The notes below the pieces were generated by a model, which saw only the letters and a list, made by a program, of their open reading frames with translations, was not told the origin of the DNA and ran no database searches. 47,610 bases of DNA from an uncultured Candidatus Saccharibacteria bacterium. Its GTDB lineage: Bacteria > Patescibacteriota > Minisyncoccia > Phycocordibacterales > UBA918. The stretch covers positions 118,452 to 166,061 of the forward strand of contig CAYGKO010000003.1 of assembly GCA_964350735.1 (NCBI GenBank), written 5' to 3'. Numbering within the stretch: position 1 is the stretch's first letter; each line of letters starts with the position of its first letter. A program made the translations under genes and the position numbers. This document shows positions 2,973 to 35,376 of this stretch, piece after piece.

Positions 2973-3019
2973 AATGGGACTAAGTGTACCGCAAAATCCA
3001 CTCGCTGCCTATCGGCACG

Positions 3020-3047
3020 AAAAATACCGCCCGAGGGCGGTATTTTT
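3020..3047. terminator. Intrinsic terminator downstream of the H1-like gene
   Basis: AAAAATACCGCC-CGAG-GGCGGTATTTTT perfect inverted repeat with T-tracts on both strands. Confidence 0.85.
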
Positions 3048-3066
3048 TGGTCTCAAGTAACGAAAA

Positions 3067-3324: not shown

Positions 3325-3485
3325 ACTTTAAATGAAAGGTTGGTTTTATAACTTTCGACCGCTCGACGCACTCCGATTTTCAAAGAACCAATACTGTAAG
3401 AGATTGTCTGCTTACATACATTATCGCCCGTACAAAAATTACTGCAACAACTTTTATAAAAAAGTTTGTTGATAAACTTTTGTCT

Positions 3486-4505
3486 CTATAATCTAGTTAC
3501 TTCCCACTCAATAGAAATCTTCGTCTTATCAAAAACAGTTTTTGAAATTTTTTCGGCGAACTGCGTTACCTCCGCTGCTGTTGCGCTTCCATAATTTATG
3601 AATACTAAAGCCTGCCCCGCATAAGAACCCACTGCCCCAGAGCGCACGCCACGAATATCACACACTTTATCTAGAACCCAACCAAGCGGAATTTTAATGG
3701 TGTCAGCTGTCACTGCAAAGCCCGGTAGATCAGGATATTCTGTTACTAATTTCTGATAGTGTTTGGTTGCAATAACTGGATTTTTAAAAAAAGATCCTGC
3801 AGTACCAACCTGGTTCCAGTCAGGAAATTTTTTTGATCGAATTGCGATCACTGCATCTCGAACTTCTGCTAGCGTGACCTGATTTTTTTCTTGTAAGGGC
3901 AAAAGATCTTTGTAATCTAAAATAGGTTTTGGTATTTTGCTCAATGTAAATGTAACAGCACTTACTACATACTTTCGTCCAGCATCAGTCTTAAAAAAAG
4001 AATCACGGTACGCAAACGCACATTCTTCTACCGTAAAATTTCTAAACTCAAGAGTAGTAGTATTTAACACCCGTACTGCTGTGACTACTGATTCTATCTC
4101 AACACCGTAAGCTCCAACATTTTGAATCGGAGCAGCTCCGACTGTACCAGGAATATGGGATAAATTTTCTAGACCCCAGTACCCCTTCAAAACGCACTGC
4201 TGTACAACATCATCGAGCGCTTCCCCGGCTCCGACTGTGAGCACTACGGTCTCTTCTGTTTCTGAAACTACCGTAATACCACTAATTTCATTCTTGATTA
4301 CTAAACCAGGGAACCCTGTATCTGAAGCAAGTACATTAGAACCACCACCTAAAACAAACCAAAGCTGTTTATTAGATTTTGCATAGGTAATAGCCTGCTC
4401 TAGTTCCAGCTCGGTTGTAACAGAAACAAATTCCTCTGCTGCACCTCCAATTTTAAAGGTAGTATGTTTTGAGAGCGGCACTGCTGGCTCGTATTTGAGC
4501 TCCAT
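3486..4505 (-). CDS. murB: UDP-N-acetylenolpyruvoylglucosamine reductase
   Basis: Motifs HTTFKIGG, LGGGSNVL, GLENLSHIPGTVGAAPIQNVGAYG, FAYRDSFFK and GTAGSFFKNP. Confidence 0.98.
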   Translation of the reverse strand: MELKYEPAVPLSKHTTFKIGGAAEEFVSVTTELELEQAITYAKSNKQLWFVLGGGSNVLASDTGFPGLVIKNEISGITVVSETEETVVLTVGAGEALDDVVQQCVLKGYWGLENLSHIPGTVGAAPIQNVGAYGVEIESVVTAVRVLNTTTLEFRNFTVEECAFAYRDSFFKTDAGRKYVVSAVTFTLSKIPKPILDYKDLLPLQEKNQVTLAEVRDAVIAIRSKKFPDWNQVGTAGSFFKNPVIATKHYQKLVTEYPDLPGFAVTADTIKIPLGWVLDKVCDIRGVRSGAVGSYAGQALVFINYGSATAAEVTQFAEKISKTVFDKTKISIEWEVTRL

Positions 4506-4508
4506 AAG

Positions 4509-6719
4509 TTAACAGCCCTCTTGTGGCGTTTTTCCAACTTCAATATTTTCAATGTAACACTGACCAGTAGCCGCAAAACTCGGTACAGCAGCAACCCCAG
4601 CCTGCAAGGCTTCTATGGCTTTATCCGTCTGCTGATCACGGTAGTAGATAAAAGCCTGACTAGCGTAATGTTGTGCATTTCCTGGATCGGCTTCAATGCG
4701 AGCATCAAACATCCGATGTAAAAGCTCGGTCTCTCCTTTTGCTTCAGCAGCACTCAAGGCAAAGTTGTTTCTCGCAAAATTCAGCCAATTTTTTTCAGTC
4801 ACTACCTCATCTACCTTTTCCGCCTGTCCAGCATGGACGAGTACACTAGCATAAAAAATTTGGGCCTGTGGGTTCACAGGAGCTAAGTCATACGCCTCTT
4901 TCATAAATCCGAGCGACTCTTCGATTCTTCCTCGTTGAAAAGCAGTAATGCCTTGTTCAATCACAATGGCTGGTTTATTTGGTGACAATGAACGCGCGAT
5001 CGCTGCTTGTTCAGCCGACTGATCAAACTGCCCTAGACTACGATAGAAGCCCCCAACAAAAACATGGACTCGAGCATCGTTGGGTTTATCTTTAGCGAGT
5101 TTCAATAACTCAACCTCTGCTCGTTCGGCAAACGCTTGCTTTTGCTCATTTGGTACATTTCGATCAGCTACAATACGGATCGCCTGCTGTGCTAACTGTT
5201 CCACCACTTCTTGACGAGCAAATGATCCGCGATCTAAAGCTTCATCAAATGCAGCCAATCGCTGCTCTATTGTCGGGGCAGAGATGGCTTTAATGATATC
5301 TCCAGCCGCCTGCATCCCTGGCACGTTCACTAGGTACACCACTACGAGGGCCAGCACTGCAACACTAGGTGCAACTACATGAGTAACAACAGATTCATCT
5401 GTCTTAAGATTTTGCCACTTTTCAACTTTTTCTCCAATTCGACTGTGGATCAAAGCCAACAGGATAGCAAAGAAAATAAAGCTCACGATATTATCGAATA
5501 CCACTAAGTTGTGGGTGAAATATCCAGCCAAAATTCCGAGCAAAAGACCTCGTTCTACTACTGTAAAGCTATCGTCTGGTCGAATAAGTGGCCGAATAAC
5601 AATGTAGTACGTCGCAGCAGCAAAGATGCTGAGATACGCAATCAGACCAAGGATTCCTCCTGCCACCAGCCAATCCATGAATACATTATGCGCTCGATCG
5701 TACCACAGCTCAGCGTAGTAAATTTCTGGAATGTAGTGCTCGTTAAAAATGTAGTTAAAGTTACCCTGTCCCCAACCGAGAATCGGTCGCTCTTTCACTC
5801 CTTCGAGCGCCATCCCCCAAATCTGGGTTCGGAGCGTGAGTTCTTCCAAGTTAATTGAGGCCGCTCGTTCTAGAATTACATTGTTCTGCACTACTGCCGT
5901 ATCTTTAAACTGGAACAAAGCTCCCACCAAGACCGCAACCACCACTACCCCACCAAGGGCAATTTTTCGCACTACTGGAAACTGAGTATTGAAGAGCGCA
6001 ATGTATGCGGAACCAAGAAAGAGTCCACCAGCGAGACCGACAATCGTACCTCGAGTTGCTGTCTGCACTAAGAGGAAAACGAACGTCAAAGCAATCAGAC
6101 CAAGTAAGACACGGACCCAGGTTGTCTTGACGGCATTAATAAGCCACAACGCAATAAATGTGTTGAAAAGCATATACACTGCCATGTACGAAGCGTTTCC
6201 TAACGTTCCGGTAATACGCCATCCACCCTGAGTGATCACCTGTTGTCCAGCGAGCTGTTGAAAGGCGTAAAAGGCTACCAAGCCAGCAGCAAATAGAGCG
6301 GTGGTAAAAAACACCGTCCATGACGTGGTCTTCATCCCTAAGAAATCAATCTGCTTATTACTTAAGATACTCCCCAATACTACAAAGTATAAGAAGAAGT
6401 GCACGAGTGTGACATACCCATCCATGCGTTCGAAGTTACTCCAAAAACTCTTTAGTGCATATTCCCCTCCCAAGTTTGCAAACAGCATGACGGACAACAA
6501 GGCCCCAGCGGAAACCAGCACCCATGATAATTTAGGCCGATACTGTGTATCTAAGAGCGCCAAAATGATCCAGCCAGCGAAAATTATTTCGACAATAATG
6601 CGGAAATAAAAGTTTTTCCCAGTGATAAACGGGAAATACATCGAGTCTGAGACGACGGTTGGTAAAAATAATACTAAAAACGCACCACCAAAGACTACTA
6701 CTTGAAGGAAATCTTTCAT
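4509..6719 (-). CDS. O-antigen ligase family (Wzy_C) membrane protein with C-terminal TPR-like repeats; possible O-oligosaccharyltransferase
   Basis: About 12 hydrophobic segments, with GTLGNASYMA, TATRG, R..IW...RPILGWGQGNF and AHN motifs and a helical repeat C-terminus. Start moved to ATG 6719 because the upstream part of the ORF crosses a hairpin. Confidence 0.85.
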   Translation of the reverse strand: MKDFLQVVVFGGAFLVLFLPTVVSDSMYFPFITGKNFYFRIIVEIIFAGWIILALLDTQYRPKLSWVLVSAGALLSVMLFANLGGEYALKSFWSNFERMDGYVTLVHFFLYFVVLGSILSNKQIDFLGMKTTSWTVFFTTALFAAGLVAFYAFQQLAGQQVITQGGWRITGTLGNASYMAVYMLFNTFIALWLINAVKTTWVRVLLGLIALTFVFLLVQTATRGTIVGLAGGLFLGSAYIALFNTQFPVVRKIALGGVVVVAVLVGALFQFKDTAVVQNNVILERAASINLEELTLRTQIWGMALEGVKERPILGWGQGNFNYIFNEHYIPEIYYAELWYDRAHNVFMDWLVAGGILGLIAYLSIFAAATYYIVIRPLIRPDDSFTVVERGLLLGILAGYFTHNLVVFDNIVSFIFFAILLALIHSRIGEKVEKWQNLKTDESVVTHVVAPSVAVLALVVVYLVNVPGMQAAGDIIKAISAPTIEQRLAAFDEALDRGSFARQEVVEQLAQQAIRIVADRNVPNEQKQAFAERAEVELLKLAKDKPNDARVHVFVGGFYRSLGQFDQSAEQAAIARSLSPNKPAIVIEQGITAFQRGRIEESLGFMKEAYDLAPVNPQAQIFYASVLVHAGQAEKVDEVVTEKNWLNFARNNFALSAAEAKGETELLHRMFDARIEADPGNAQHYASQAFIYYRDQQTDKAIEALQAGVAAVPSFAATGQCYIENIEVGKTPQEGC

Positions 6720-6753
6720 AAAATATATAGTGAGAACTATAGCATAACGAGAA

Positions 6754-6784
6754 GTGCGGGCGGAGGCTTCGCCTCCGCCCGCAC
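6754..6784. terminator. GC-rich perfect hairpin between sat-cysC and the ligase gene
   Basis: GTGCGGGCGGAGGC-TTC-GCCTCCGCCCGCAC, a 14-bp stem with only a weak U-tail. Confidence 0.6.
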
Positions 6785-6810
6785 CACACAAAACCTTATT
6801 TGGTCAAATA

Positions 6811-8481
6811 CTAGCGTTTTTGTATCAAGCTCTCTTGCACTAAATACTCAATCACAGCCTCAGCGTGATTAGCCGGGTCTCCGGTTGAGGCATCAACTAC
6901 CAGTTCTGGGCTGATCGGCGCTTCATAGGGATCACTCACGCCCGTAAACTGCGGAATAATCCCCGCCCGAGCTTTTTCATACAAACCTTTCACATCCCGC
7001 GCTTCACAGACAGCGAGCGGCGTCGCGACATGCACCTCAATAAAGCTTCCCTGCGCTTCGACAAGACTACGCGCTTTATCCCGCGCTTGGGCATACGGGG
7101 CAATCAACGAACAGATCGCGATGCCGCCGTGCTTAGTAATCTCACTCGCCACATACCCAACCCGCTGCACATTTAAATCCCGGTGCTCTTTGGAGAACCC
7201 AAGTTCAGAAGTTAGGTGATTTCTAATCACATCACCATCAAGTAACGTGACTTCCCGATCTTGGATCTCGAGTAGTTTTGATGCTAATACAGTAGCTACG
7301 GTTGATTTCCCCGACCCGGATAAGCCAGTAAAGAAAACCGTCACCCCGCGCCGCTTTTGTTTAGCGACCCCCACCATCAATTCTGCAATACTTTCCGGAA
7401 ACGAAAACCACTCGGGCACCGACTCACCAGCAAATAACAGCCGCCTGAACTCTGTCCCTGAGATCGACTGAGTTTCTTCCCCCTCTGTCAGTTCGTCCAT
7501 GCTCACATATGATTCCTTGCTCGGCACATACGCCAACTCCGCACTCGGCACCACTACGATCCCCACTTCTGCAGCATATTGCTCAGCCAAGTCTCGCGCT
7601 TCATAGGCCCCATAGAACGGTTCGCCGTTACTATCTTTTCCTGGACCAGCATGATCACGCCCCACAATAAAGTGCGTGCAGCCGTAGTTCTTCCGCACGA
7701 TCATATGCCACAGGGCTTCGCGGGGCCCGGCCATCCGCATCGCGAGCGGCAGCAGCGCTAGATGAGTAAAGTCTTTCCCGTACTTCTCACACACAACCCG
7801 GTACGTGTGCACCCGAGTGATGTAGTCGATATCACCTTCTCTAGTCATCCCGACTACCGGATGCACCAAAACTGGCGCCCCGACTGATTCGTGCGCGCGC
7901 TTAACAAGCTCAAAATGAACGCGGTGCATTGGATTGCGCGTTTGAAAGGCTACCACCGTATCCCAGCCCTTATCTTTAAATACTTGCTTGAGTTCAGTCG
8001 GTGTATACCGGTGATCTTTAAAATCATGTCGTTCCGGCAACTGCAGCATTTCTATTTTTCCTCCGATGTAGGTATCATGCATCTGATTCATCACGTAGCG
8101 CACACCAGGGTGCAGCATGTCGCTGGTACCGTACACTTTTTCCACCTCGACTTGTTTATCAGGTTGGTACCGACTTTCGATAGTCATGACCGCCAGAGGA
8201 TTACCAAACTGATCACACAGCACCACCTCGTCACCGACTTGGTGTACAAAAGAGTCTGGTACATCAAGTACCACCGGAATCGGAAACAAAGCCCCGTCCG
8301 TCAAACGCATATCAGACACCACCGACTCATACTCAGCCTGATTCATAAATCCTTCGAGCGGTGCAAACCCTCCCACCATTAACATCTCTAAATCAAAAAT
8401 CTGCCGATCTTTGAGGTTAAATCGCTCAATATTTTGTACTGACTTGAATTTTTCTTGAATATTAAACATATTTTTGTTCAC
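6811..8481 (-). CDS. sat/cysC: Bifunctional sulfate adenylyltransferase / adenylylsulfate kinase (PAPS synthase)
   Basis: N-terminal part has GGFAPLEGFM, AFQTRNPMHRVH, MAGPREALWH and THFIVGRDHAG. C-terminal part has FTGLSGSGKST, LDGDVIR, LGFSKEHRD and RDVKGLY. Confidence 0.97.
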   Translation of the reverse strand: MNKNMFNIQEKFKSVQNIERFNLKDRQIFDLEMLMVGGFAPLEGFMNQAEYESVVSDMRLTDGALFPIPVVLDVPDSFVHQVGDEVVLCDQFGNPLAVMTIESRYQPDKQVEVEKVYGTSDMLHPGVRYVMNQMHDTYIGGKIEMLQLPERHDFKDHRYTPTELKQVFKDKGWDTVVAFQTRNPMHRVHFELVKRAHESVGAPVLVHPVVGMTREGDIDYITRVHTYRVVCEKYGKDFTHLALLPLAMRMAGPREALWHMIVRKNYGCTHFIVGRDHAGPGKDSNGEPFYGAYEARDLAEQYAAEVGIVVVPSAELAYVPSKESYVSMDELTEGEETQSISGTEFRRLLFAGESVPEWFSFPESIAELMVGVAKQKRRGVTVFFTGLSGSGKSTVATVLASKLLEIQDREVTLLDGDVIRNHLTSELGFSKEHRDLNVQRVGYVASEITKHGGIAICSLIAPYAQARDKARSLVEAQGSFIEVHVATPLAVCEARDVKGLYEKARAGIIPQFTGVSDPYEAPISPELVVDASTGDPANHAEAVIEYLVQESLIQKR

Positions 8482-8542
8482 TACTTTAACACAGAGAATT
8501 AAACTATCTACGAGTTAATTAAGTTATAGTAGTGACAAAGAT

Positions 8543-9757
8543 ATGATGACTCTAATAAGAAAATACTACGGATTTTTTACCCAAGGAATTGGATGGATAT
8601 TCAGTTCTCAACTTATAGTTAGCGCGGTTGGTTTTATTTTTACAATTGTCATCACTAATGCCTTATCTGTTACTGAATACGGTATATATAAGTATGTAAT
8701 AGCAATAGCTTCACTATTAATCATATTGACAGCATCCGGCTTGATCTCAGCCATGACACGTGTCGCAAGCACAGGCAACGGAGGTGAGATACGCTACCTT
8801 ATATGGGTACGAACGCAGTGGGCGCTATTGGCCTGCTTAGCTGGACTTGCCTTGGCTGGATACTATGCCCTGAATGATAACTTTCAACTCACTATCTTGA
8901 TGTTAATTATTGCCATTGGCATGCCGATCAGCGAAATCCTACGAATGTACCAACCAATACTTCAAGGTAGACGAGCGTACAAACTACTGAGTATATTTGA
9001 CACATATGGACATGTTTCTCACTATACTGTTGTTGCTGTAACAGCCTTAAGTGGAGCAAACTTAACCTGGGTCGTCGCTAGTTATTTTATCTCTTACGTT
9101 GTCGCATATAGCTGGCCTTTTTTATATGCCTATAAAAAATTTACGACCACAATGATTCCGGCCGCGCAAGCCCGCATGTTTGGTATCCACATGAGTATTG
9201 CAAACTCAATCGCGGTCGCCTCTACCCACATTGATAAACTTCTTGTCTTCACAAATATTGGAGCGGCTGAAGCAGCAATCTATGCTGTTGCAATTGCTCC
9301 AGTTGAAATATTACGTAGCTTCCAAAAAAGTATTACCACCTTCATTCATCCTCGGGTGGCCCAATATAAAAAAATTACTTTCAGAGAGCACCTCATCAAC
9401 CACATTCTTCCCGGCCTTTCCATTTCTATAGTAATAGCAGGAGCATATATAATATCCGCATTAGTCCTCCTTCCTTTATTTTTTCCTAAATATCCAGAAG
9501 CTGTAGTACTTTCACAGCTATATGCAATATCTATACTAGGCATTACAATGTTTCCAAATACAGTACTGGAAGCCCGTCTAGCTACTCGGGAACTTTATTA
9601 TCATAAGATCAGTGCCAGTTTTATTAGAGTAGCACTAATAGTGGCCGGACTGCATTTTTATGGAATAACCGGAATTATAGTGGCTCAAGTTATTGCTCGT
9701 TTAATTACTTTTATGTCAGCGCTTATTTTTGTTTATTTAAATCTGAAAAAAAGCTAA
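8543..9757 (+). CDS. Wzx-type oligosaccharide flippase
   Basis: About 12 TM segments, with L(S)..EYGIY near the N-terminus and IDKLLV..IG..AAIY in the second half; sits in a glycan locus. Confidence 0.8.
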   Translation: MMTLIRKYYGFFTQGIGWIFSSQLIVSAVGFIFTIVITNALSVTEYGIYKYVIAIASLLIILTASGLISAMTRVASTGNGGEIRYLIWVRTQWALLACLAGLALAGYYALNDNFQLTILMLIIAIGMPISEILRMYQPILQGRRAYKLLSIFDTYGHVSHYTVVAVTALSGANLTWVVASYFISYVVAYSWPFLYAYKKFTTTMIPAAQARMFGIHMSIANSIAVASTHIDKLLVFTNIGAAEAAIYAVAIAPVEILRSFQKSITTFIHPRVAQYKKITFREHLINHILPGLSISIVIAGAYIISALVLLPLFFPKYPEAVVLSQLYAISILGITMFPNTVLEARLATRELYYHKISASFIRVALIVAGLHFYGITGIIVAQVIARLITFMSALIFVYLNLKKS

Positions 9758-9820
9758 AATTCATCCAGTAACAATAAAAAGACTGCTTTATCCCTTAATC
9801 ACGATCAGTCCTGACCCAGA

Positions 9821-10291
9821 CTACTCTAATATGTTTTTTATCACCCTCGCAGGAGATCCTACAGAAACAGTGTTTGGGGGAACATCCTTTGTAACTACTG
9901 CACCAGCACCAATTACAGCATTTTTTCCAACAATCACACCCGCCAAGATAATTGCCCCAGCACCAATCCATGCACCATCATCTATGTGCACTGGCTTTGA
10001 AAAATGACCACGATCTTTCCCGGTATCGCCGTACTGCAGTCCAGCGCTGTTAATGCTGGCATGGTTCGAAATGTTTACATGAGAACCAATAATCAATCCA
10101 CCTTTTCCACTCAGATATGCTCCATCGCTGATACTTGAAAAATCACCAACCTTTATATTTTGAGGGCAGGAAATCTTAATTCTTCCGCTCACCCTTAATT
10201 TCTTACCACACACATTAAATAGTTTGCTATACCAAAAACTAGACACTTTTACATGTGCTCGATCGAATATCCTATGAAGGAAAATAAACAT
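9821..10291 (-). CDS. Hexapeptide-repeat (left-handed beta-helix) O-acetyltransferase
   Basis: [39 protein letters not shown]...GSPARVIK. Confidence 0.9.
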
Positions 10292-10305
10292 ATAGAAGTT
10301 TTGAA

Positions 10306-10971
10306 TTATTTTTTCACACCCACTGCCTGAACATTTGAGTATAGTGAACTATCCATTTTTATATCCCTATTGATACCTCCGTAATCCTGCCTAATAAAAA
10401 TATCAAATCCTGGCATTATTTTAGCAACTAGGAAAAGAGGCACTTTTACAAAAGGAGACATATCTGTCTGATACCCAATTCTTTGCAAAAGAATACCAAT
10501 AGTTCTAAAAGGTCGGCACGAGGCTCGCGAAACTTCGACTACAAAGCCAGCTTGTTCTAATAAATATTTCATTCCATAGATACTAAAATGGAAATAGTTC
10601 TCAGGGGCATTATGTGTTGAAAAAGCGTAACTGGCGGAAATGATAACTTTTCCGCCTGGCTTAATAATCCGATTAAATTCTGTTAATGTCTTAAGAGGTT
10701 CTGGAACATGCTCTAGTAATCCAGTACAAACAATTGCGTCATAAGATGAGTCGTCAACTGGAATCTGCTCGTAATTTTTTTCAGCTATAATCTTAACCTC
10801 TTCATCAACCTGTTCGACATTGCATTTAGTGCGGTTTGGAAAGTAAAAATCATACGCCATGTCATCAGAATGAACTATTAACACCCGCTCTTCCGGTGTT
10901 GTGGCCGCTTCTTTGCACAACTTTTCTATGTCTGGTTGTGATAATTTTTTAGTGATCCAGTTTATAAACAT
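10306..10971 (-). CDS. Class I SAM-dependent methyltransferase (type 11-like)
   Basis: [20 protein letters not shown] and RIIKPGG motifs; motif I is degenerate (LIVHSD). Confidence 0.75.
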
Positions 10972-10998
10972 AATGCGATTTTATTGGGCGTAAGTATA

Positions 10999-12552
10999 TC
11001 ATAGCGACCTGATATGCTCTGCGAGACGGATAGTTAAGCCGGCTGCAACAAAAGTAGGATTGATGTTGCCCCCAGTTGGCATCACAGACGTACCCGCTAT
11101 AAACAAATTACTAATTCCATGCACTTTCTGATGTGCATCAACTACAGAAAAACGGGGATCCTCACCCATTCTTGTAGCCCCCATATGGTGGGCTCCATCA
11201 CTTACTACTGTCCAGGGGTCATAAGATGGCTCAACATACTCAAACTCTGAACCACTGAATATACTCTTTATTTCTAAATGCAATTTTATAAGCGAGTTCT
11301 TTTCGTTTTGACTTAGGTCATAGCTCACCACCGGAAGCGGAACACCGTTACAATCTAGTTTTTTTGATAGAGTAACAGCATTCTCAGCACGGGGTTCAAC
11401 CTCTAAGTAATTACGAAATTTAAATCTCTCAATCTTCGGCTTTTTATTAAAAAATTTCATCTGTGCATAGAGTAGTACTAGCCAAAATACAGAAATATAT
11501 TCACTAAAATGATTCTTTCTGGTGCTAATGTCAAGAGATACGTCCTCCTGGTTAGAAACCGAATTTTGTTTTTTGTAAAAGTTTTTGAGCGATATAAACT
11601 TTGTAAACAGGCTGTTTCCTGTCCACGGATACATCGGAACTAATTGAGTGTAGTGATGCGCCATTCTGTGCTCTCTCCTGAAAGACTCAGTCAAACCTAT
11701 GCCTAAGTACCACCTATAAGAGCCGTCTTCCTGAACAAAAAAATCCTCAAATGATTTGCTTACATCTGATTTTAATACCACTTCCCCAGCAAAACCTTTG
11801 GGGTGATTCATAAAATATTTTCCAACACAATCACACTTGTTTCCAGCAGACCCTGGTTTTGTTACGGGAGAATTAAGCAGTAGACGAGCATTCTCAATCC
11901 CACCAGCTGCTAGCACAAATTTTTCCGCCTTGATTCTAATCTTTTCATTTCCAACGATCACCTCGGCCGCACTGATCTCTGTACCTGAATCACTCTCCAA
12001 TTTGCTAACTGCAGCATTGGTAATAAATATATAGTTCTCCTTTTCAAAAAGGCTGTCATACATTTTTTTACACCGCATCACAGGTATCTTCGCTGAGAAT
12101 AGTTCAGCCTTGAGATTTGCATTTGCACTTAAAATATCTGGGCTCTCCTTGACCGCCTGTTCGTAGGACTCAATCGCAGGAAAGCCGTATTTTAAACCTG
12201 CTTGTTGTAAATACGCTCGAAGTTCATGGATAGTGAGCGGCCATTTTTTTAAATTACACGCAGCATCGTTCATATCAAGCCCATCAAGCATTCCTGACAA
12301 TCCCCACCAAGTAGCGGTCGAACCGCCAAACCCTCTTACTCGGGACTGATTTCTAATTTTTAGTGATCCTGAGATCACCTCTTTTAGAGACTCTGCCTTT
12401 TCATTATCTCCACTTTCAATAATACAAATCTGCAGATCAGTATTTTTTAGTTCTTCTAATAATATATATGTCATCAATCCACCACCAATTAGGCACAGAT
12501 CAAATCTCTGATTACAGCTCCGCTCTACTTCTTTAAAATCCTTGCAGAGCAT
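10999..12552 (-). CDS. GMC-family FAD oxidoreductase
   Basis: Motifs RGFGGSTATWWG, FVLAAGGIENARLLL, VGKYFMNHP, HHMGATRMG, VVD...VHG..NLFIAG and NPT. Start placed at ATG 12552, just after the upstream stop. Confidence 0.88.
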   Translation of the reverse strand: MLCKDFKEVERSCNQRFDLCLIGGGLMTYILLEELKNTDLQICIIESGDNEKAESLKEVISGSLKIRNQSRVRGFGGSTATWWGLSGMLDGLDMNDAACNLKKWPLTIHELRAYLQQAGLKYGFPAIESYEQAVKESPDILSANANLKAELFSAKIPVMRCKKMYDSLFEKENYIFITNAAVSKLESDSGTEISAAEVIVGNEKIRIKAEKFVLAAGGIENARLLLNSPVTKPGSAGNKCDCVGKYFMNHPKGFAGEVVLKSDVSKSFEDFFVQEDGSYRWYLGIGLTESFRREHRMAHHYTQLVPMYPWTGNSLFTKFISLKNFYKKQNSVSNQEDVSLDISTRKNHFSEYISVFWLVLLYAQMKFFNKKPKIERFKFRNYLEVEPRAENAVTLSKKLDCNGVPLPVVSYDLSQNEKNSLIKLHLEIKSIFSGSEFEYVEPSYDPWTVVSDGAHHMGATRMGEDPRFSVVDAHQKVHGISNLFIAGTSVMPTGGNINPTFVAAGLTIRLAEHIRSL

Positions 12553-12553
12553 T

Positions 12554-13168
12554 TTATTTTTCCAGGAAATAATAAAAACCACCTACTTGCACTTTTGGTT
12601 TTTTATCAATCCATTGGTCAAATTTTCTGGCTATCGCAATGAGCAGATCTGATCTCCCCAAGGGCGTTAATCGTACAATCATCTCAATACGGTCTCGAAC
12701 GTGCACATAGTCAAAGCGAGAAAAAGGTTTTGCCAAATGCTCGAGTGTGTCTTTTGTGAAGCGCCAATAGTCTTCATAATATCCTTCGTGAGCATGATAA
12801 TAGTATAGAAATGGGACGTAAATGAGTAGTCGTCCACCAGGCTTCAGCACCCGATGCATTTCTTCCATCGCTCGGACCGGATCTTTTACGTGCTCTAAAA
12901 CAGCTAAACAAATAATGGCATCGACACTATTATCAGTTAGCGGAATCGCGTGTATATCACCCACGATATCAGGCCCGTAATCAGGCACTGGATCCATGAC
13001 AGTATAATCAACTTTTTCTATGTATTCTTTTAGCCACGCACGAGAGCTGTCATACTTACTTCCAGTCTCCTTACGAGCCCGCAACCCTTCTCCAATATCA
13101 AGGACTGATTTAGAATTATCAAATAAATCGATACATTTTTCTTCGAAGAATTTATCCCAAACATTCAT
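12554..13168 (-). CDS. Class I SAM-dependent methyltransferase
   Basis: Motifs VLDIGEG, GDIHAIPL..NSVDAI, LEHV, RVLKPGG and DYWRFT. Confidence 0.88.
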   Translation of the reverse strand: MNVWDKFFEEKCIDLFDNSKSVLDIGEGLRARKETGSKYDSSRAWLKEYIEKVDYTVMDPVPDYGPDIVGDIHAIPLTDNSVDAIICLAVLEHVKDPVRAMEEMHRVLKPGGRLLIYVPFLYYYHAHEGYYEDYWRFTKDTLEHLAKPFSRFDYVHVRDRIEMIVRLTPLGRSDLLIAIARKFDQWIDKKPKVQVGGFYYFLEK

Positions 13169-13170
13169 AA

Positions 13171-14955
13171 TTATGATTTCAGCTTAAACGTGATTGAACA
13201 CTCTGTTATCTTTTTAAAAGTAATGGCCTTTTTCCCGTGCGTATAGATACCATTTGATGTAATGGTAACATCCTTGGTCCATTCTGGAAGAAAATACCTA
13301 ACTACACCTTGTGTTTGGTCAGAGCGAAACACTTCGCTGACTTCAATAGAATCAGGTAAACATTTATAATTTCTATTCACACTAACACCTGCCATAGACG
13401 TTCCACTTTTTTCAGAGACCCCACCATTATAGGCATACGCATTGTCGACATGCTGCTTTATTGAACTTTCGCAAAAATATGCCGATGAGTAGACATGATG
13501 AAGACTGAAGGCATGACGCAACAATATTAAAAATCTATACAAACTTGAATATAAATAACCACCACGTATCTCAATTAAAATATAAAATAATAATCGCTTG
13601 AAATCATTTTTTGATATATCTACTGGAGAAGTTCCAATACTTTTTATTTTTTTTATACTAAAATTTAACGGTATACTTGCAGCTAATTCTGTGATGACAA
13701 TTTTATTTTTATAATTCTCATCATTCTTTCCAAAATAAACTACCGAGCCACCCCCAATTCTTGGACCCCAAAGCGGGTTCTGAGGCTTCTTGGCGCCGCG
13801 GATTATCAAACCATACGAATCACGAGTAACATTTAAAATATCGGCATTGGAAAAGAGATTTATACCCTCTGGTACTTCGGGACTGATATCTTCTGGAAGA
13901 AGTTTCAACTCAGCACTGATTCGAGTTAGCCAAACACAATGTGAATTCCAAAAATATGGACACTGGAAATTTTCTGGGCCGCCAAGATGATCTCTGATAC
14001 CTCCTTGTTTTAACACTAAATGCTGATTTAAAATCTCTAATGCTTTTAGCGCATATCTTGCATAGCGTTTATCCTTGGTGTAAGTATAAAACTTTAAGAA
14101 GGCGTAAATATCGTATGAATTGCTTGCTATTTCATAGTCTGAAATAAAATACCAACGTTTTGTTTCAAGTTGAATATTTTTAATTCCATCTTTTTGGTAA
14201 AAAGCCGTCAGAAAATCAACCGCTGGTTTCAGCCGCGCAATCAAATTCTCACACATAAGATCACTGCGCTCTGCTGCATGCCAAAGAAAAGCAATATGTC
14301 GTGAGTGATAATAGTTAGTAGTATCTGCAATGGCTGGATCAAGTCCATGTTTTTTGTAGTCGGTCACGTATGGAATACTTCCGTCAGATTGAATATCATT
14401 GAGACTCATTTCAATACATTTTGATATAGCTGCTTTCCACCCCTCTTGGGGATTCAGCGCATACCCTGATGCCAAACCAGTAGCACCCCACAAACGCTGA
14501 TTGGTGTGTACTTTTTCAAGAACTGTCCTAGTCAAGTAGGTTTCACAATTCTTAGTCAAAACATCATGAAGCAGCGCTTGTTCTTTATCTAAAAATTCAT
14601 CAGCGTGCTTCTCTAGCATTAGTGCCAACATGTCACTTACTGCCCCGCTGTCAATAATATGATTAGACATATTCCATCGTTCGCTACCGTCCGATGTAAA
14701 AAAATATTCTCCATTATATGACTGGAGTAACTGAGGCATCCGTAAGGCCCGAGCTTTAGCACGCTCTAGATATTTTCTCTCTCCTGTCTGCGTATAAAGA
14801 TATTGATCTATCCCAATCGAATACGCTGTCTTTCCAGTATGTTCAACTCTATGTTTTGGGCAGTAATTTTTCCCTTGCACATCAGTTCCAGTGTCAAAAA
14901 AATTAGAGACGGACGCCAATATTGCATCTAATTGAGCTACGTGAACGCTACTCAT
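13171..14955 (-). CDS. Uncharacterised protein, probable (alpha/alpha)-toroid carbohydrate-active fold
   Basis: 594 aa. Helical N-terminal repeats (YLYTQTGERKYLERA, FYTYTKDKRYARYA, QSDGSIPY) are followed by a beta-rich C-terminus. The fold call is inference. Confidence 0.5.
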   Translation of the reverse strand: MSSVHVAQLDAILASVSNFFDTGTDVQGKNYCPKHRVEHTGKTAYSIGIDQYLYTQTGERKYLERAKARALRMPQLLQSYNGEYFFTSDGSERWNMSNHIIDSGAVSDMLALMLEKHADEFLDKEQALLHDVLTKNCETYLTRTVLEKVHTNQRLWGATGLASGYALNPQEGWKAAISKCIEMSLNDIQSDGSIPYVTDYKKHGLDPAIADTTNYYHSRHIAFLWHAAERSDLMCENLIARLKPAVDFLTAFYQKDGIKNIQLETKRWYFISDYEIASNSYDIYAFLKFYTYTKDKRYARYALKALEILNQHLVLKQGGIRDHLGGPENFQCPYFWNSHCVWLTRISAELKLLPEDISPEVPEGINLFSNADILNVTRDSYGLIIRGAKKPQNPLWGPRIGGGSVVYFGKNDENYKNKIVITELAASIPLNFSIKKIKSIGTSPVDISKNDFKRLLFYILIEIRGGYLYSSLYRFLILLRHAFSLHHVYSSAYFCESSIKQHVDNAYAYNGGVSEKSGTSMAGVSVNRNYKCLPDSIEVSEVFRSDQTQGVVRYFLPEWTKDVTITSNGIYTHGKKAITFKKITECSITFKLKS

Positions 14956-16082
14956 ATTGTTAAAAAGTTACAAATTGACTGAGCTCGGTTCTTCCAAGTG
15001 TACTTAGTAACCACTACTTGAGCTTGGTCTGCTTTCAGTTGTGACTGAGTACTACCTTGTAAGCACTGAACAATCGCTGACTTAAAGCTTTCTGGATTAT
15101 CAGGCTCTGCAAACGTTGCAGTTGATTCATCCAGCACCGATCGAATGCTCGGAATATCAGAAGCTACTACTGGTACTCCTGATGCCATATAGGTAAACAC
15201 CTTTAGAGGTGAAGTATATTTTGAAGACAGATCGCTTGTTGCAGTGTTGGGAATAACCAAGACATCAGCTGCTTTCTGTAACTGAGGCAAGTCTCTGTAG
15301 GCGGTAAAGCCAAGGAAAGTTACCCAAGGGTAAGTCGCTTTATATAATTTTACCTGTGCCGGTGAACCGCCACAGACAAACACTTCAAAATTATCTGTAC
15401 CTTCAGCCGCTAAACAAAGCGTATCGACCCCTTTCCATTTTTCTAGTCCACCAAAATACATCACCACTGGTTTTTCGGTCTTGATACCAAGCCTATCTCG
15501 CGCTTCTGCTTTAGTGCCGGGAGCATCAATAAAGGACTCATCGATACCATCGTGAGCCACCAGTATCTGACTGTCAGGAATCCCTCGCTCACTATAGGCT
15601 GCTTTAATACCTTCAGAAATGACTACAAACGGGACGCCATGCCGCGCCAAGCTACGCACCGCTTTTGAATATTTAGCCTCATGTGATTCGTATACCAGCT
15701 TTTCATACCCAAGGAAGAAACTCAGAAACCAGAGCACCCATTCATCGCGACTATAGATAACATCTGCATTTTTGGTTTCAATACTTCGTACTGCCTTATG
15801 GGTAAAAACTAATCGTTGCACTGTTAGAGCGGGCACCTTAAGAAATGATGGCAATGAGTCTCCCCAAGCAGCCATATCTGGTACCGAGATACGGTGTGTG
15901 GAAAATAAAAATTTTGCGCCATAGTACTGTTCTGGGGCATCAGAGATATTAGTCTTACGATCAGTTACAAATAAATTCACCTCATGACCGAGAGACGCTA
16001 AAGCATTACAATTTTGCACAATTTGGGTACTGTGCGCTCTATTGCTGGGGAATCGACTGTTACTTAGATACGCAATCTTCAT
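14952..16082 (-). CDS. Glycosyltransferase family 4
   Basis: Motifs MKIAY, YFGGLEKWKGV, ADVLVIP and TSPLKVFTYMASGVPVVASD. Confidence 0.92.
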   Translation of the reverse strand: MKIAYLSNSRFPSNRAHSTQIVQNCNALASLGHEVNLFVTDRKTNISDAPEQYYGAKFLFSTHRISVPDMAAWGDSLPSFLKVPALTVQRLVFTHKAVRSIETKNADVIYSRDEWVLWFLSFFLGYEKLVYESHEAKYSKAVRSLARHGVPFVVISEGIKAAYSERGIPDSQILVAHDGIDESFIDAPGTKAEARDRLGIKTEKPVVMYFGGLEKWKGVDTLCLAAEGTDNFEVFVCGGSPAQVKLYKATYPWVTFLGFTAYRDLPQLQKAADVLVIPNTATSDLSSKYTSPLKVFTYMASGVPVVASDIPSIRSVLDESTATFAEPDNPESFKSAIVQCLQGSTQSQLKADQAQVVVTKYTWKNRAQSICNFLTI

Positions 16083-16084
16083 GA

Positions 16085-16936
16085 TTATTTTTTAGCCACG
16101 ACATCGTGGTGAGTTGGAAAGAGATACTCCATACTAGTTGGAAGAAGTTTCCGAATGAGGTGATTGAGAGGGTTTGAGAAATACACTCGATAGCCTCGAT
16201 TTATAAAACTCGGCAGGAACAAGATTCGTTTCGGGATGATGGTAAAACCAAATGATCGAATATTCACTTCCCCATATTCACTGAAAAGCTTACTAACCTC
16301 AGATCGAGAAAAATAACGTACCGGGCCATTGCGATACTCATCAGCAAATAACTTCATAAACCACAAATATAATGCCACCTGGTAGCCCATCAAAGAATGG
16401 AGGCTTGGGAATGACGAATACACAAACACTTTACCGCCCGGCTTTAATACTCTAAAAATCTCACTAATTGACCGCTTAGTGACTGATTTGTGATTATGTA
16501 AAAAGACTGCCGAGACAACCACCGTATCGACCGAGTTATCCGCTAATGGGAGATCATCAATCTGACCGTACACAAAATGCATTGGTGTGTTTACACTTAT
16601 TGATGTTTTTCGATCACGCGCGTAGCGCAGCATCGACAACGAGCTATCGACTCCAATATAGCCTTCAAAATCACGTCGCGGGAGCAGCTGTTCAGCAATC
16701 CGTCCATACCCGCAACCAACATCAAGTACAATGCCGTCATTTGCATCTACTGCAAGTTCGTCAATTTGTGGCATCCCCTTCTCTATAGCATGTGCTTCAC
16801 TTTCAGCTGATGTGGCAGCATCAAGCAAATCGGACTGTGACAAAGTGTCCCAGACAGTTGAATCAGCCTGATCTGGCGGTACCATGAGGCCTTCTGCTAC
16901 TTTATATCCAGGTCGAATGAGTGAAGAAATTTCCAT
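16085..16936 (-). CDS. Class I SAM-dependent methyltransferase
   Basis: Motifs VLDVGCGYG, GVDSSLSML, LPLADNSVD and RVLKPGG. Confidence 0.92.
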   Translation of the reverse strand: MEISSLIRPGYKVAEGLMVPPDQADSTVWDTLSQSDLLDAATSAESEAHAIEKGMPQIDELAVDANDGIVLDVGCGYGRIAEQLLPRRDFEGYIGVDSSLSMLRYARDRKTSISVNTPMHFVYGQIDDLPLADNSVDTVVVSAVFLHNHKSVTKRSISEIFRVLKPGGKVFVYSSFPSLHSLMGYQVALYLWFMKLFADEYRNGPVRYFSRSEVSKLFSEYGEVNIRSFGFTIIPKRILFLPSFINRGYRVYFSNPLNHLIRKLLPTSMEYLFPTHHDVVAKK

Positions 16937-16938
16937 GA

Positions 16939-17739
16939 CTATTTTTTAAACCAGCCGGTAATACGAGCAAATATATCATACCCGCCCTCAATCCAGCGAC
17001 AGACTGACATAATTGGCTGGTTTTTCTCTACTAGCGTACGCGGAATTTCACTATCTGCGCGGCTCAAAAAACCACTAATTGCACTGTATATATGGGTGAA
17101 ATTATGCTCCTGCACTAAAGTAGTGGTGGCAGCTGAAAAATCAATCCTGGTACCAAATGGGTACGCAAAGTGGCTGATTTTGGTACCGAGCTGTTGTTCT
17201 AGCACTGCTTTGTTCTTTGTAACCTCAGTTTGAGCAGCTGCCAGACTAACCTTACCTAAAGAGACATGGGAGTGGGTATGGGCGCCGATCACCTGCCCTG
17301 ATTGATGTAGGGTATGCAGTCCTGCAGTGGTCAAGAGTTTTTTGGGAGACAGCAGCAACTGCTTGCGGGCAAATGTCGTGGCCTCCTCTTCATCATTGGC
17401 CACCTCAAGAATTTGAGTACTGACAAAAAAGATTCCTCGTAAGTGATGTTGCTCTAAAACGGGTAGCACAGTAGTGACCCAAGAATCATACCCGTCATCA
17501 AAGGTCAGGAGGAGATTGATTTTTTCATTATTAAAATTACCCGATACAAAATCAGCTGGTTGCAAAATATGATACCGATCACTGAGAGTGGCAATGAGTG
17601 ACTCAAACCAAGCCAGGTCGGCCACATCATGAAAAGCGACTACTCGCACCAACGGCTTTTTGGCTTGACGTTGGTGCAGCGCCACAAGACCGAAGCGGCA
17701 ACAGGCCCATATGAAACCATCTCGAATCAGGTGTTTCAT
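16939..17739 (-). CDS. Polysaccharide deacetylase (CE4/NodB family)
   Basis: Motifs LTFDDGY, GAHTHSH and FAYPFG. ATG at 17739 overlaps the sulfotransferase stop (ATGA). Confidence 0.9.
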   Translation of the reverse strand: MKHLIRDGFIWACCRFGLVALHQRQAKKPLVRVVAFHDVADLAWFESLIATLSDRYHILQPADFVSGNFNNEKINLLLTFDDGYDSWVTTVLPVLEQHHLRGIFFVSTQILEVANDEEEATTFARKQLLLSPKKLLTTAGLHTLHQSGQVIGAHTHSHVSLGKVSLAAAQTEVTKNKAVLEQQLGTKISHFAYPFGTRIDFSAATTTLVQEHNFTHIYSAISGFLSRADSEIPRTLVEKNQPIMSVCRWIEGGYDIFARITGWFKK

Positions 17740-18569
17740 AGCTTCCATTCAGTTAGCATGTCCCGGCCTAGATACTCGCCAAGCTGGCGCACGTCATCAA
17801 TAAACACGCTGGCAACAAAACTAGTATCTGGTTTGGCTTTTTCAGTCGGTGACGCGTGATTAGTATTTTTAGAACGAATGTAATCTGGTAGACCTGAACG
17901 CTTCACTTTATGTACCAGCGCATCCAGGCCATGGGCACGCAGCCACTCTGCTAATCTGTGCATCCCTTTATCAATTCGATAGTTCTTGGGCGCGCGAGCA
18001 ATGTTGATACGACTTTGTAGTGACGGCGGAACAAATGAATCGTCCACTCCAATATGTCTATAGATACTACTCATAAAGGCCTGTGGGTCGCGCGCAATGT
18101 CTTCATACACCAGCACCAGGAGCTGCTCCTGAGAGAAATATTGTAGATATCGATCAATCTGATTCATGTATTTCCCCTGCTCAACACAGCTAACTTCAGA
18201 TTCAGTATACGCTGCAAAAGTCACATCTTCGGTAATTTCTCCAGCCTTGATGGCATTGCGATACTGTGAATAAGCGCGCTCGACTGGATTGCGCACTACT
18301 AAGAGTAACTGCGTGTCTGGATATAAAGTATGGATACGTGCCGCTGCCACATCACTGTATGCATACGAGGTTGAAAATTCACCTAACTTCAAATTCTTAT
18401 CACAGTTACGCCAGTGATTTTCATACCACTGCCTCCCCTCACTAAAGCGCGGGCGACTAAAAAAGTGAATCTCCTTCACCGGAGCACAGACTTCAGGATG
18501 CTCATACAAGCAGGCGTAAATCCATGAGGTCCCTGACTTTTGCGCGCCAATGCCAATAAAATTAATCAT
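17736..18569 (-). CDS. PAPS-dependent sulfotransferase
   Basis: 5'-PSB loop GAQKSGTSW, KEIHFF and 3'-PB motif RNPVERAYS. Start placed at ATG 18569. Confidence 0.92.
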   Translation of the reverse strand: MINFIGIGAQKSGTSWIYACLYEHPEVCAPVKEIHFFSRPRFSEGRQWYENHWRNCDKNLKLGEFSTSYAYSDVAAARIHTLYPDTQLLLVVRNPVERAYSQYRNAIKAGEITEDVTFAAYTESEVSCVEQGKYMNQIDRYLQYFSQEQLLVLVYEDIARDPQAFMSSIYRHIGVDDSFVPPSLQSRINIARAPKNYRIDKGMHRLAEWLRAHGLDALVHKVKRSGLPDYIRSKNTNHASPTEKAKPDTSFVASVFIDDVRQLGEYLGRDMLTEWKL

Positions 18570-30809: not shown

Positions 30810-30810
30810 A

Positions 30811-31692: not shown

Positions 31693-31704
31693 AATGGAGT
31701 AATA

Positions 31705-33099: not shown

Positions 33100-33102
33100 A
33101 GA

Positions 33103-35322: not shown

Positions 35323-35328
35323 GCCAGA

Positions 35329-35337: not shown

Positions 35338-35343
35338 GAAGCA

Positions 35344-35369: not shown

Positions 35370-35376
35370 CGATATT

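Follow-up and report, generated by a model that had tools for sequence, protein, structure and literature searches.

The stretch of DNA analysed here (the window; 47,610 nucleotides (nt), G000:C3:118452-166061) belongs to an assembly of 1,052,309 bases in 7 contigs, estimated to be 95.68% complete and 0.52% contaminated; G000 denotes this host genome, other G numbers denote compared genomes and L numbers denote extracted loci. The sequencing runs listed for this DNA include none of RNA, and one DNA data set, a biofilm metagenome, may come from the source sample. The span under study, 6811-18569, extends from the stop codon of a fused sulfate adenylyltransferase/adenosine 5'-phosphosulfate (APS) kinase gene (Sat-CysC) at one end to the likeliest start codon of a sulfotransferase (ST) gene at the other, the ST being of the type that uses 3'-phosphoadenosine 5'-phosphosulfate (PAPS) as donor. 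An earlier note, made from the letters of the sequence, had placed both genes in one glycan locus, and this placement was confirmed by domain matches and gene neighbourhood. Together with a polysaccharide deacetylase (PDA) of carbohydrate esterase family 4 (CE4), they quite probably represent a dedicated sulfation module within a hypervariable surface-glycan locus of the Wzx/Wzy_C type in a Paceibacteria/Kaiserbacteria-like member of the Patescibacteria, a group of the Candidate Phyla Radiation (CPR). The three genes are as follows.

6811..8481, minus strand: Sat-CysC, bifunctional sulfate adenylyltransferase/APS kinase, 556 amino acids (aa), assigned from its domains and NF004040.
16939..17748, minus strand: CE4 polysaccharide deacetylase (PDA), Polysacc_deac_1 73.6 bits; its start shares 13 nt with the 3' end of the ST gene.
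17736..18569, minus strand: PAPS-type sulfotransferase (ST), 277 aa, assigned from Sulfotransfer_1, fold and motifs.

Sat-CysC is, by family membership, a full-length bifunctional PAPS synthase, for which PAPS formation is predicted. PUA_2 (residues 9-147, 150.4 bits), ATP-sulfurylase (157-369, 268.7 bits) and APS_kinase (378-530, 202 bits) domains follow one another in that order, and the protein scores 792.8 bits on the NCBIfam equivalog of the bifunctional enzyme (NF004040, cut-off 669). Residues 15-553 of 556 align with the bifunctional SAT/APS kinase of Aquifex aeolicus (2gks, E 1.7e-169), with which the domain order and the equivalog are held in common. The stretches QTRNPMHRVH and GRDHAGPG contain QxRNxxH and GRDHAG, which we take to be the Sat active-site motifs, and GLSGSGKST and LLDGDVIR contain the P-loop (GxxGxGKS) and LDGD, presumably the APS kinase motifs; relative to 2gks, QTRNPMHRVH and LLDGDV are identical, and GRDHAxPG and the P-loop are conserved with substitutions. 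The Sat-CysC proteins of close kin are 60-78% identical to the window protein over the full length. The G+C content at third codon positions (GC3) is 0.531 in Sat-CysC versus 0.31-0.43 in the neighbouring genes. Recent horizontal transfer of the gene was nevertheless rejected, as 11.2% of the 627 open reading frames (ORFs) of at least 200 aa in the genome reach this GC3, as the GC3 of kin Sat-CysC lies above the local median in 6/6 genomes and as the gene keeps a constant position beside SecA-MurB-Wzy_C. In genomes of other families of the host's own order (G641, G648, G654, G711 and G748) ATP-sulfurylase lies in frames of 714-941 aa, compared with 556 aa here, which suggests additional fused domains, and G098 has two Sat copies in frames of 304 and 735 aa.

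The ST reading frame (17736-18635) matches Sulfotransfer_1 (PF00685) with 69.6 bits (cut-off 22) and Sulfotransfer_3 with 64.5 bits (cut-off 27), and is the sole match to either family in the whole genome; Sulfotransfer_2 (PF03567) gave 0 matches in the host genome, an uninformative result in that the control likewise gave 0 in every genome. The probable start is the ATG at 18569, which lies within the ATGATTAA overlap with the stop of the upstream family 4 glycosyltransferase (GT4) gene and yields a protein of 277 aa, the length of its homologues. The protein contains GAQKSGTS (residues 8-15), KEIHFFS and RNPVERAYS (93-101), and across 36 ST homologues G8, A9, Q10, T14, S15, E33, H35, R93, P95, R98 and S101 are invariant and K11 is conserved in at least 90%. 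We take GAQKSGTS, with its Lys, to be the 5'-phosphosulfate-binding loop and RNPVERAYS to be the R...S motif that binds the 3'-phosphate. KEIHFFS aligns with AEPHFFD of the heparan-sulfate 3-O-sulfotransferase 3-OST-3, whose Glu-x-His stretch is presumably catalytic; the Asp of 3-OST-3 corresponds to Ser38 in the ST.

A predicted model of the ST (mean predicted local distance difference test score (pLDDT) 87.1, predicted template modelling score (pTM) 0.82) was used for a fold search, which returned 79 PDB matches at E<=0.001; all among the matches listed are sulfotransferases. The best relative by both sequence (E 4.3e-22) and fold (E 5.7e-14, template modelling scores 0.70/0.78) is 3rnl from Alicyclobacillus acidocaldarius, a structural-genomics entry whose title gives no substrate and which therefore does not help to name the acceptor. 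It is followed in the fold list by the human heparan-sulfate 3-O-sulfotransferases 3, 1 and 5 and by the sulfotransferase domain of N-deacetylase/N-sulfotransferase 1 (NDST1), all with probability 1.0, and lower down by curacin (CurM), olefin-synthase, tyrosylprotein and cytosolic sulfotransferases; by sequence, the ST also matches 3-OST-3 at E 3.8e-16 and the sulfotransferase domain of NDST1 at E 2.7e-12. On sequence and predicted fold, the nearest characterised relatives are heparan-sulfate glucosamine sulfotransferases (17-30% identity in the Foldseek alignments), of which the ST is not classed as a member. In a word-indexed search, homologues at E<=0.001 number 471, and the best 120 of these 471 are all 271-314 aa long and 53-62% identical; the protein would stand for a sulfotransferase subfamily that is uncharacterised and comprises at least 120 members at this identity. 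A hydropathy scan detected no transmembrane-like segment in the ST or in either of the two CE4 proteins of the window, and the ST is therefore probably cytoplasmic.

In the PDA, D84, D85, H157 and H161 are invariant among 22 orthologues, which also begin alike, with a short hydrophobic helix at the N-terminus and basic residues after it. The predicted model (pLDDT 95.1) most closely matches the folds of PplD, PgaB, IcaB and BpsB, GlcNAc (N-acetylglucosamine) de-N-acetylases of polysaccharides, and in NCBIfam the protein comes closest to HfsH (44.6 bits) and PgaB (43.5 bits), in each case far below cut-off; a probable GlcNAc de-N-acetylase is indicated. The protein thus resembles Caulobacter HfsH, PgaB, IcaB and streptococcal PplD, CE4 de-N-acetylases of GlcNAc in surface polysaccharides, none of which, to our knowledge, is coupled to a sulfotransferase. 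The ST gene overlaps its neighbours at both ends, which indicates translational coupling to a GT4 on one side and to the CE4 deacetylase on the other. Among 36 ST loci, 27 have a CE4 gene at most 1.3 kb away, 29 have a gene resembling the adjoining GT4 (GT4b-like) at no more than that distance and 26 have the two together, and four of the nine loci that have no CE4 gene stop less than 850 nt past the ST. The DD...HxxxH de-N-acetylase pattern of the PDA thus adjoins the NDST-like ST in 27/36 loci. The order is GT4-ST-CE4 in Patescibacteria and ST-GT4-CE4 in five remoter loci, four of which come from metagenome-assembled genomes (MAGs) that are not labelled CPR. The ST and the CE4 deacetylase are encoded in the window by two separate genes, not as one fused polypeptide, and a prediction of their complex scored 0.00 in both runs, which speaks neither for nor against binding.

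Genes that could draw PAPS into cysteine were sought in the whole assembly. PAPS_reduct (PF01507, which covers CysH but also CysD and other PP-loop enzymes) gave 0 matches, with a control that was positive in 14/14 reference genomes, and the sulfite reductase family NIR_SIR gave 0 matches, with a control positive in 11/14. There is no cysteine synthase (CysK/CysM), the sole PALP match in the assembly being a threonine synthase (TIGR00260, 213.3 bits, cut-off 167.1), and the hexapeptide protein of the locus was considered as CysE and rejected (59 bits versus a cut-off of 210.65). The earlier note had reported no APS/PAPS reductase or cysteine synthesis gene nearby, which holds both for the window, where 40 ORFs were scanned, and for the whole assembly; the check it proposed, on the absence of cysH/cysIJ, had the same outcome, the assimilatory pathway not being found in this 95.7%-complete genome. 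As PAPS/APS reductase, sulfite reductase and cysteine synthase are all missing from the genome, PAPS is proposed to serve the host only as a sulfuryl donor.

All genes that lie between Sat-CysC and the ST are of glycan-pathway types, except for one 594-aa protein that has no Pfam family. The remaining features of the locus and its flanks are listed below.

3486..4505, minus strand: MurB, a housekeeping gene of the conserved left flank (FAD_binding_4 and MurB_C domains), 3 nt downstream of the Wzy_C/TPR gene.
4509..6791, minus strand: polytopic membrane protein with a Wzy_C domain (65.6 bits, cut-off 31.7) and C-terminal tetratricopeptide (TPR) repeats.
8543..9757, plus strand: Wzx-type flippase (MOP family), Polysacc_synt 58.3 bits (cut-off 28.2), at least 8 hydrophobic segments.
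9821-10291, minus strand: hexapeptide acetyltransferase, in the variable tailoring cassette (9821..16936).
10306-10971, minus strand: S-adenosylmethionine (SAM) methyltransferase, variable cassette.
10999-12582, minus strand: GMC oxidoreductase, variable cassette.
12554-13168, minus strand: SAM methyltransferase, variable cassette.
13171-14955, minus strand: 594-aa soluble protein of no Pfam or NCBIfam family, variable cassette.
14952-16082, minus strand: GT4, variable cassette.
16085-16936, minus strand: SAM methyltransferase, variable cassette.
18562-19602, 19607-21025, 21045-22175 and 22165-23295, minus strand: four GT4 glycosyltransferases, the conserved glycan-building block upstream of the ST.
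23322-24332, minus strand: YvcK/CofD-like UDP-GlcNAc-binding protein, conserved right-hand block.
24390-25388, plus strand: second CE4-like deacetylase, conserved right-hand block.
25385-26179, minus strand: PHP/CehA-type metallohydrolase, conserved right-hand block.
26176-27381, minus strand: ATP-grasp ligase, conserved right-hand block.

The Wzy_C/TPR protein has about 12-13 hydrophobic segments, and its domain belongs to a family of O-antigen ligases, polymerases and O-oligosaccharyltransferases among which the match does not distinguish. Its gene follows Sat-CysC on the same strand after 19 nt, and since the gaps are only 19 and 3 nt, Sat-CysC, the Wzy_C/TPR gene and MurB are probably co-transcribed; a consensus scan of 3000-10500 was uninformative (13 promoter-like sites versus 12.5 expected, 10 terminator-like sites versus 6.1 +/- 2.6). 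The Wzx gene diverges from Sat-CysC across a 61-nt spacer, and its NCBIfam match as a MOP flippase is sub-threshold; among ten proteins of the conserved block scanned against NCBIfam, no score reached the cut-off. SecA adjoins the MurB side of the locus, 4.4 kb from Sat-CysC. The cluster contains five GT4 genes, and a sixth lies at 29598-30809. The second CE4-like deacetylase beside the ATP-grasp enzyme (24390-27381) suggests another amine modification of the same glycan, with an amide-linked substituent. As to the 594-aa protein, its nearest ESM Atlas clusters are unnamed and mostly of Planctomycetota (0.98) or contain ulvan-lyase N/C-domains (0.96), ulvan being a sulfated polysaccharide, and the ST-PDA pair of L025 has a 43%-identical copy beside it. 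A modifying enzyme of lyase fold is conceivable, which is offered as a lead only. Further along the window, 29598-36967 and 45119-46939 encode a GT4 and an NAD-epimerase, a lamin-tail/PKD-domain protein, a VirD4/TraG-like coupling ATPase, a DUF4015 glycosyl-hydrolase-like protein and a protein with a T4SS-pilin domain, all of them usual components of surface and conjugation-like machinery in CPR.

Species-representative genomes were scanned with an ST pattern, which recovered 37 loci; 19 of them carry a Patescibacteria label and are 48-62% identical, and one, at 48%, is from a Vicinamibacterales MAG. The labels of the 19 are Paceibacterota, Paceibacteria, Kaiserbacteria or 'Saccharibacteria', with one merely 'uncultured bacterium'. 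SecA is 67-73% identical to that of the window in 17/19 (it is fragmented in G313 and without a match in G317), compared with 57-60% in seven genomes of the same order and 69% in one of the same genus; the 19 ST-bearing genomes are therefore near kin of the host. The closest relatives of the host by SecA, at 67-73%, are MAGs labelled Candidatus Paceibacterota, Kaiserbacteria, Saccharibacteria or Paceibacteria, so that its description as CPR-like in the earlier note was well founded. As these kin were found through the ST itself, they give no ST frequency for the clade. ATP-sulfurylase is present in 17/19, the two that have none being assemblies of 0.6-0.7 Mb for which completeness was not given. 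At E<=1e-8, the level at which a PF01507 match in ST-bearing kin was regarded as a possible CysH, PAPS_reduct is matched in 0/19 kin and in 1/25 Patescibacteria-labelled ST genomes, the one being a genome that has no Sat. G310, a kin genome with an orthologous ST and no ATP-sulfurylase match, has a 254-aa frame with APS kinase only (G310:C1:22089-22544) at the syntenic site about 5 kb from SecA, which may be a truncated Sat-CysC.

The architecture of the locus combines fixed flanks with a changing interior. In ten kin, 4.4-9.2 kb separate Sat from SecA. In the SecA-to-ST interval of six kin, MurB is followed in 6/6 by Wzy_C/TPR, by 0-3 genes and then by Sat-CysC, and likewise in 6/6 an opposite-strand Wzx lies 1-6 kb past Sat-CysC and PDA-ST stands at the far end. 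Matches to MurB (37-51% identical, same position) and Wzy_C/TPR (46-51% identical) occur in 6/6 kin and in G671, and a larger block (ATP-grasp, PHP, second CE4, YvcK in some, and four GT4 genes) precedes the ST in most long kin loci. The interval from Sat-CysC to the PDA measures 8.5 kb in the window and 3.3-28.4 kb in the six kin, most of whose interval ORFs have no match to window proteins. Twenty of these unmatched kin ORFs were scanned for families; they include GT4 enzymes, SAM and FkbM methyltransferases, an AT3-SGNH acyltransferase, a TagF-like glycerophosphotransferase, nucleotidyl-/cytidylyltransferases, NeuB, an AsnB-like amidotransferase, radical-SAM enzymes and a UDP-sugar dehydrogenase fusion, and 3/20 have no family. 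The G+C content of the window cassette is 0.37-0.43 versus 0.451 for the genome, and 8001-14000 is the lowest stretch of the window (0.385-0.406); the coincidence of low G+C with the variable cassette fits an exchange of cassettes between lineages. G671, the one congener drawn without bias (same genus, 99% complete), has kept MurB-Wzy_C/TPR and carries a different cassette, with neither Sat nor a GT4b-ST-CE4 block; a single ORF resembles the ST, with 29% identity along 169 residues, and it belongs to no Pfam family. Because the flanks are conserved among kin, the cassettes differ and G671 is without the module, the gene comparisons indicate that the module is ancestral to this group of kin yet dispensable and exchangeable, in the manner of O-antigen or capsule loci. 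The variability of the locus between kin fits diversifying pressure on a surface structure, for example through phage or host recognition, and does not indicate which pressure; host attachment, mimicry and phage evasion, put forward in the earlier note, would be candidate roles only.

The earlier note had proposed surveying Patescibacteria for co-occurrence and synteny of Sat and sulfotransferase, and both were borne out. Evenly drawn subsets of 300, 300 and 150 genomes, each with G000 added, served as phylum, class and order samples, in which an ST was counted as a match to PF00685 (phylum) or to the ST-subfamily profile A1 at E<=1e-20 (class and order); Sat genomes scored as ST-negative may accordingly carry sulfotransferase families outside PF00685 or the A1 profile. 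In the phylum sample (n=301), ATP-sulfurylase exceeded its cut-off in 11 genomes and Sulfotransfer_1 in 10, with both in seven. Sulfotransfer_1 is thus found in 7/11 Sat genomes versus 3/290 others (Fisher p 9e-10, or 1.8e-8 without G000), a test in which kin genomes are not independent, though the seven genomes with both represent seven different families. Sat and ST are about 2 kb or less apart in G101, G060 and G193 and about 8 kb or less apart in G041. In the order sample (n=151) the A1 profile was matched in nine genomes and Sat in nine, with five in common (5/9 with Sat versus 4/142 without it), and in the class sample an ST relative was present in 4/301.

Taken together, these data point to the following scheme, in which each step remains a prediction. 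Sat-CysC would turn sulfate and 2 ATP into PAPS, which would be used as a sulfuryl donor only. The soluble ST would then act at the cytoplasmic face, sulfating a sugar of a lipid-linked oligosaccharide built by the adjoining GT4 enzymes, the likeliest target being a glucosamine-type residue de-N-acetylated by the coupled CE4 enzyme. Wzx would flip the sulfated unit, and the Wzy_C/TPR protein would polymerise it or ligate it onto a lipid, a wall polymer or a protein. Removal of the by-product adenosine 3',5'-bisphosphate (pAp) would then be needed, for which the candidates are two Inositol_P proteins and a weakly matching DHH/DHHA1 protein, all below equivalog cut-offs; beside one of the Inositol_P-family genes lies a REP-associated tyrosine transposase (L004:634-1302, G000 C2; 78.9 bits, cut-off 80). 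A glycan is favoured as acceptor because of the GT4-ST-CE4 coupling (26/36 loci) and because the relatives of the ST by sequence and fold are of the heparan-sulfate type. The claim of the earlier note that PAPS is made specifically to sulfate a surface glycan thereby gains support, from the missing reductive sink and from Sat-ST synteny.

Several observations weigh against this scheme. The fold does not reveal the acceptor of the ST, and tyrosylprotein and polyketide sulfotransferases are among its lower fold matches. No initiating phosphoglycosyl transferase (Bac_transf or Glycos_transf_4) was found among the 40 window ORFs, to which that search was confined. Sulfate entry is the weakest link: SulP, PiT/PHO4, TSUP/TauE and CysT/W importers gave no matches in the host genome, and the sole match among the five transporter families tried is a CitMHS-type anion carrier of the IT superfamily (G000:C3:21439-22812, L082:988-2361; CitMHS 294.5 bits, Na_sulph_symp 51 bits) that lies about 96 kb from the window, preceded by a gene for a CBS-domain protein (L082:483-941). 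Such a carrier is present in only 4/40 genomes tested, namely in three of the 19 kin (G318, G301 and G315, 75-83% identity) and in the distant G188 (42% identity, about 7 kb from Sat), and it is a weak candidate for a sulfate importer. The two Inositol_P proteins score 82.4 and 44.5 bits, with a CysQ cut-off of 228.8. Of the pathway described as self-contained in the earlier note, the PAPS synthase and the ST are therefore present, whereas no convincing sulfate importer was found and the pAp phosphatase candidates are sub-threshold. Nor is the association of the two genes complete, as the phylum sample has four Sat genomes without PF00685 and three ST genomes without Sat, and the order sample four of each kind. 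Among Patescibacteria genomes with an ST and no Sat, 8/9 also have no APS kinase (G639, G652, G659, G066, G213, G222, G317 and G671; A1 profile 216.9 bits in G639 and 186.2 bits in G652, PF00685 83.3 bits in G066), and seven of those eight are at least 90% complete; either their PAPS comes from elsewhere (a host?) or their PAPS genes were unassembled.

Sat-CysC could instead be the first step of assimilatory sulfate reduction to cysteine, with the ST an incidental neighbour. Sat and CysC are the canonical first steps of that route, and three Sat-bearing genomes of the phylum sample (G072, G205 and G250) carry strong PAPS_reduct matches, possible CysH being counted there at E<=1e-17; G072 and G205 are among the Sat genomes without PF00685, and the match in G072 adjoins Sat, as expected for assimilation. 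For the host this reading is very improbable, given a genome with neither a PAPS_reduct nor a NIR_SIR match, a threonine synthase as its only PALP enzyme, a hexapeptide protein that is not CysE and 0/19 kin with PAPS_reduct at E<=1e-8. We give as little credence to the view that Sat-CysC and the ST are decaying relics of no current function: CPR genomes are reductive, the module is gone from G671 and all that G310 retains at the syntenic site is an APS-kinase frame, but in the window both ORFs are full length with intact motifs, and at least 17 kin have full-length orthologues (60-78% identical for Sat-CysC, 48-62% for the ST) with invariant catalytic residues.

Two further alternatives accept PAPS-dependent sulfation and concern the target. 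The ST might use PAPS on a protein tyrosine, a lipid or a small metabolite, the glycan locus being merely where its gene resides; Pfam membership does not define an acceptor, 3rnl has no assigned substrate, and TPST, CurM/olefin-synthase and cytosolic SULT enzymes are significant, if lower-ranked, fold matches. This is judged unlikely, because the ST start overlaps the GT4 stop and its 3' end the CE4 start, the trio is kept in 26/36 loci including non-CPR MAGs with the order ST-GT4-CE4, the nearest characterised relatives act on glucosamine in polysaccharides, and the single ST detected in the genome shares its locus with the only other sulfur-activation gene. Alternatively, the target could be the peptidoglycan pathway (lipid II or a wall-linkage unit), with the CE4 enzyme de-N-acetylating its GlcNAc and the ST sulfating it. 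MurB, only 3 nt away from the Wzy_C gene, is transcribed in the same direction, genes for MurC/MurD-like ligases are found at 40-43.5 kb of the window, and the conserved block includes YvcK, which binds UDP-GlcNAc and acts in cell-wall homeostasis. PplD (PDB title: 'Streptococcus pyogenes deacetylase PplD') ranks first among the structural matches of the CE4 enzyme; it presumably de-N-acetylates the GlcNAc linkage unit in the wall rhamnopolysaccharides of streptococci. The locus, however, has its own Wzx, five GT4 genes and a variable tailoring cassette typical of heteropolysaccharide units, and MurB and SecA are housekeeping genes fixed in this place, which the congener without the module has as well, so that a peptidoglycan target appears quite improbable as well.

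Within the favoured reading, sulfation of the surface glycan, a more specific idea is put forward tentatively, as a possibility less likely than its opposite: the GT4-ST-CE4 trio may be a split bacterial counterpart of NDST, in which the GT4 adds GlcNAc, the CE4 enzyme deacetylates it and the ST N-sulfates the amine. If so, ultra-small episymbionts would display N-sulfoglucosamine, a heparan-like epitope, on a hypervariable surface glycan, and would keep a PAPS synthase solely for that epitope. The CPR genomes that have an ST and neither Sat nor APS kinase (8/9 tested) would then need PAPS supplied by a host organism.

Members of the CPR/Patescibacteria live on other microbes, to which they attach, and most of their biosynthesis has been lost, which makes the functions that they retain informative. 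As PAPS costs 2 ATP per sulfate and is not used here for cysteine, the sulfated product would be expected to matter to the cell. A recurrent CPR sulfation module would widen the known range of sulfated bacterial glycans, and its three small soluble enzymes would offer a concrete, assayable handle on CPR envelope chemistry; matches to sat/cysC in CPR genomes would be read as sulfation capacity and not as sulfur-cycle potential. Nothing would be overturned by such a module, which would be a recurrent, assayable feature of CPR envelope biology. In the literature searched, the supplements of PMC12114108 and PMC8205485 aside, no description of a sulfotransferase or sulfated glycan in CPR/Patescibacteria was found, and the available text of PMC10811913, PMC7304191, PMC12114108, PMC11608272 and PMC11484240 gave no link between such terms and CPR. 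PAPS synthase genes are recorded in groundwater CPR that have no sulfur-reduction genes, with a generic comment only in the accessible part of that source (PMC12114108). Its supplementary tables (CPR MAGs with PAPSS) and Supplementary file 3 of PMC8205485 (sulfotransferase distribution) are potentially relevant to novelty. The sulfation logic is thus known from rhizobia and cyanobacteria, and its occurrence in CPR was previously undescribed as far as the partly available literature extends.

An enzymatic comparison for the trio is animal NDST1, whose deacetylase, according to the available part of PMC10864358, is a (beta/alpha)7 barrel with D319 as base and D320, H389 and H393 as metal triad. 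The window CE4 enzyme shares this Asp-Asp...His-x3-His pattern (PMC10864358, as above), although neither NDST1 nor Agd3 is among the matches listed in its fold search. As in animals, PAPS in the window host would serve sulfation only; in contrast to NDST1, which is one Golgi-membrane enzyme, the window encodes two separate, apparently soluble proteins. Unlike the Aquifex enzyme 2gks with which it was compared, the window Sat-CysC stands in a glycan locus of a genome that has no sulfate reduction.

NodB is the CE4 deacetylase of the Nod pathway. The rhizobial NodPQ/NodH system, as is predicted for the window locus, couples dedicated PAPS synthesis to a PAPS-dependent sulfotransferase acting on a GlcNAc-derived glycan or on surface polysaccharides; in the accessible part of the source, NodH sulfates the Nod factor, a Mesorhizobium loti nodPQ mutant makes no sulfated polysaccharides, and rhizobial cases of sulfated glycans are noted (PMC6192434). 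NodPQ is, however, a GTPase-coupled CysD/CysN-CysC, whereas the window enzyme is a homomeric Sat fused to CysC in a genome that has no PF01507/CysD match. Rhizobia assimilate sulfate through CysH/CysIJ/CysK, which the window host cannot do; NodH is likened to the ST by its role. The synechan (xss) cluster of Synechocystis PCC 6803, as described in the available part of PMC8205485, is a Wzx/Wzy-type exopolysaccharide (EPS) cluster with many glycosyltransferases and in-cluster sulfotransferases of PF00685, PF03567 or PF13469. The window locus resembles it in being of Wzx/Wzy type with an in-cluster sulfotransferase; the xss cluster differs in its sulfate-assimilating phototroph host and, in that part of the source, in having no in-cluster PAPS synthase and no CE4 partner mentioned (PMC8205485). 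Sulfated glycans are considered rare in bacteria; in the same portion of the text, they are stated to be reported only from cyanobacteria, and its authors knew of no in-cluster sulfotransferases in other bacterial EPS clusters (PMC8205485). The module described here is set apart from these known systems by its fused Sat-type PAPS synthase, by a host that does not assimilate sulfate and by a conserved GT4-ST-CE4 trio.

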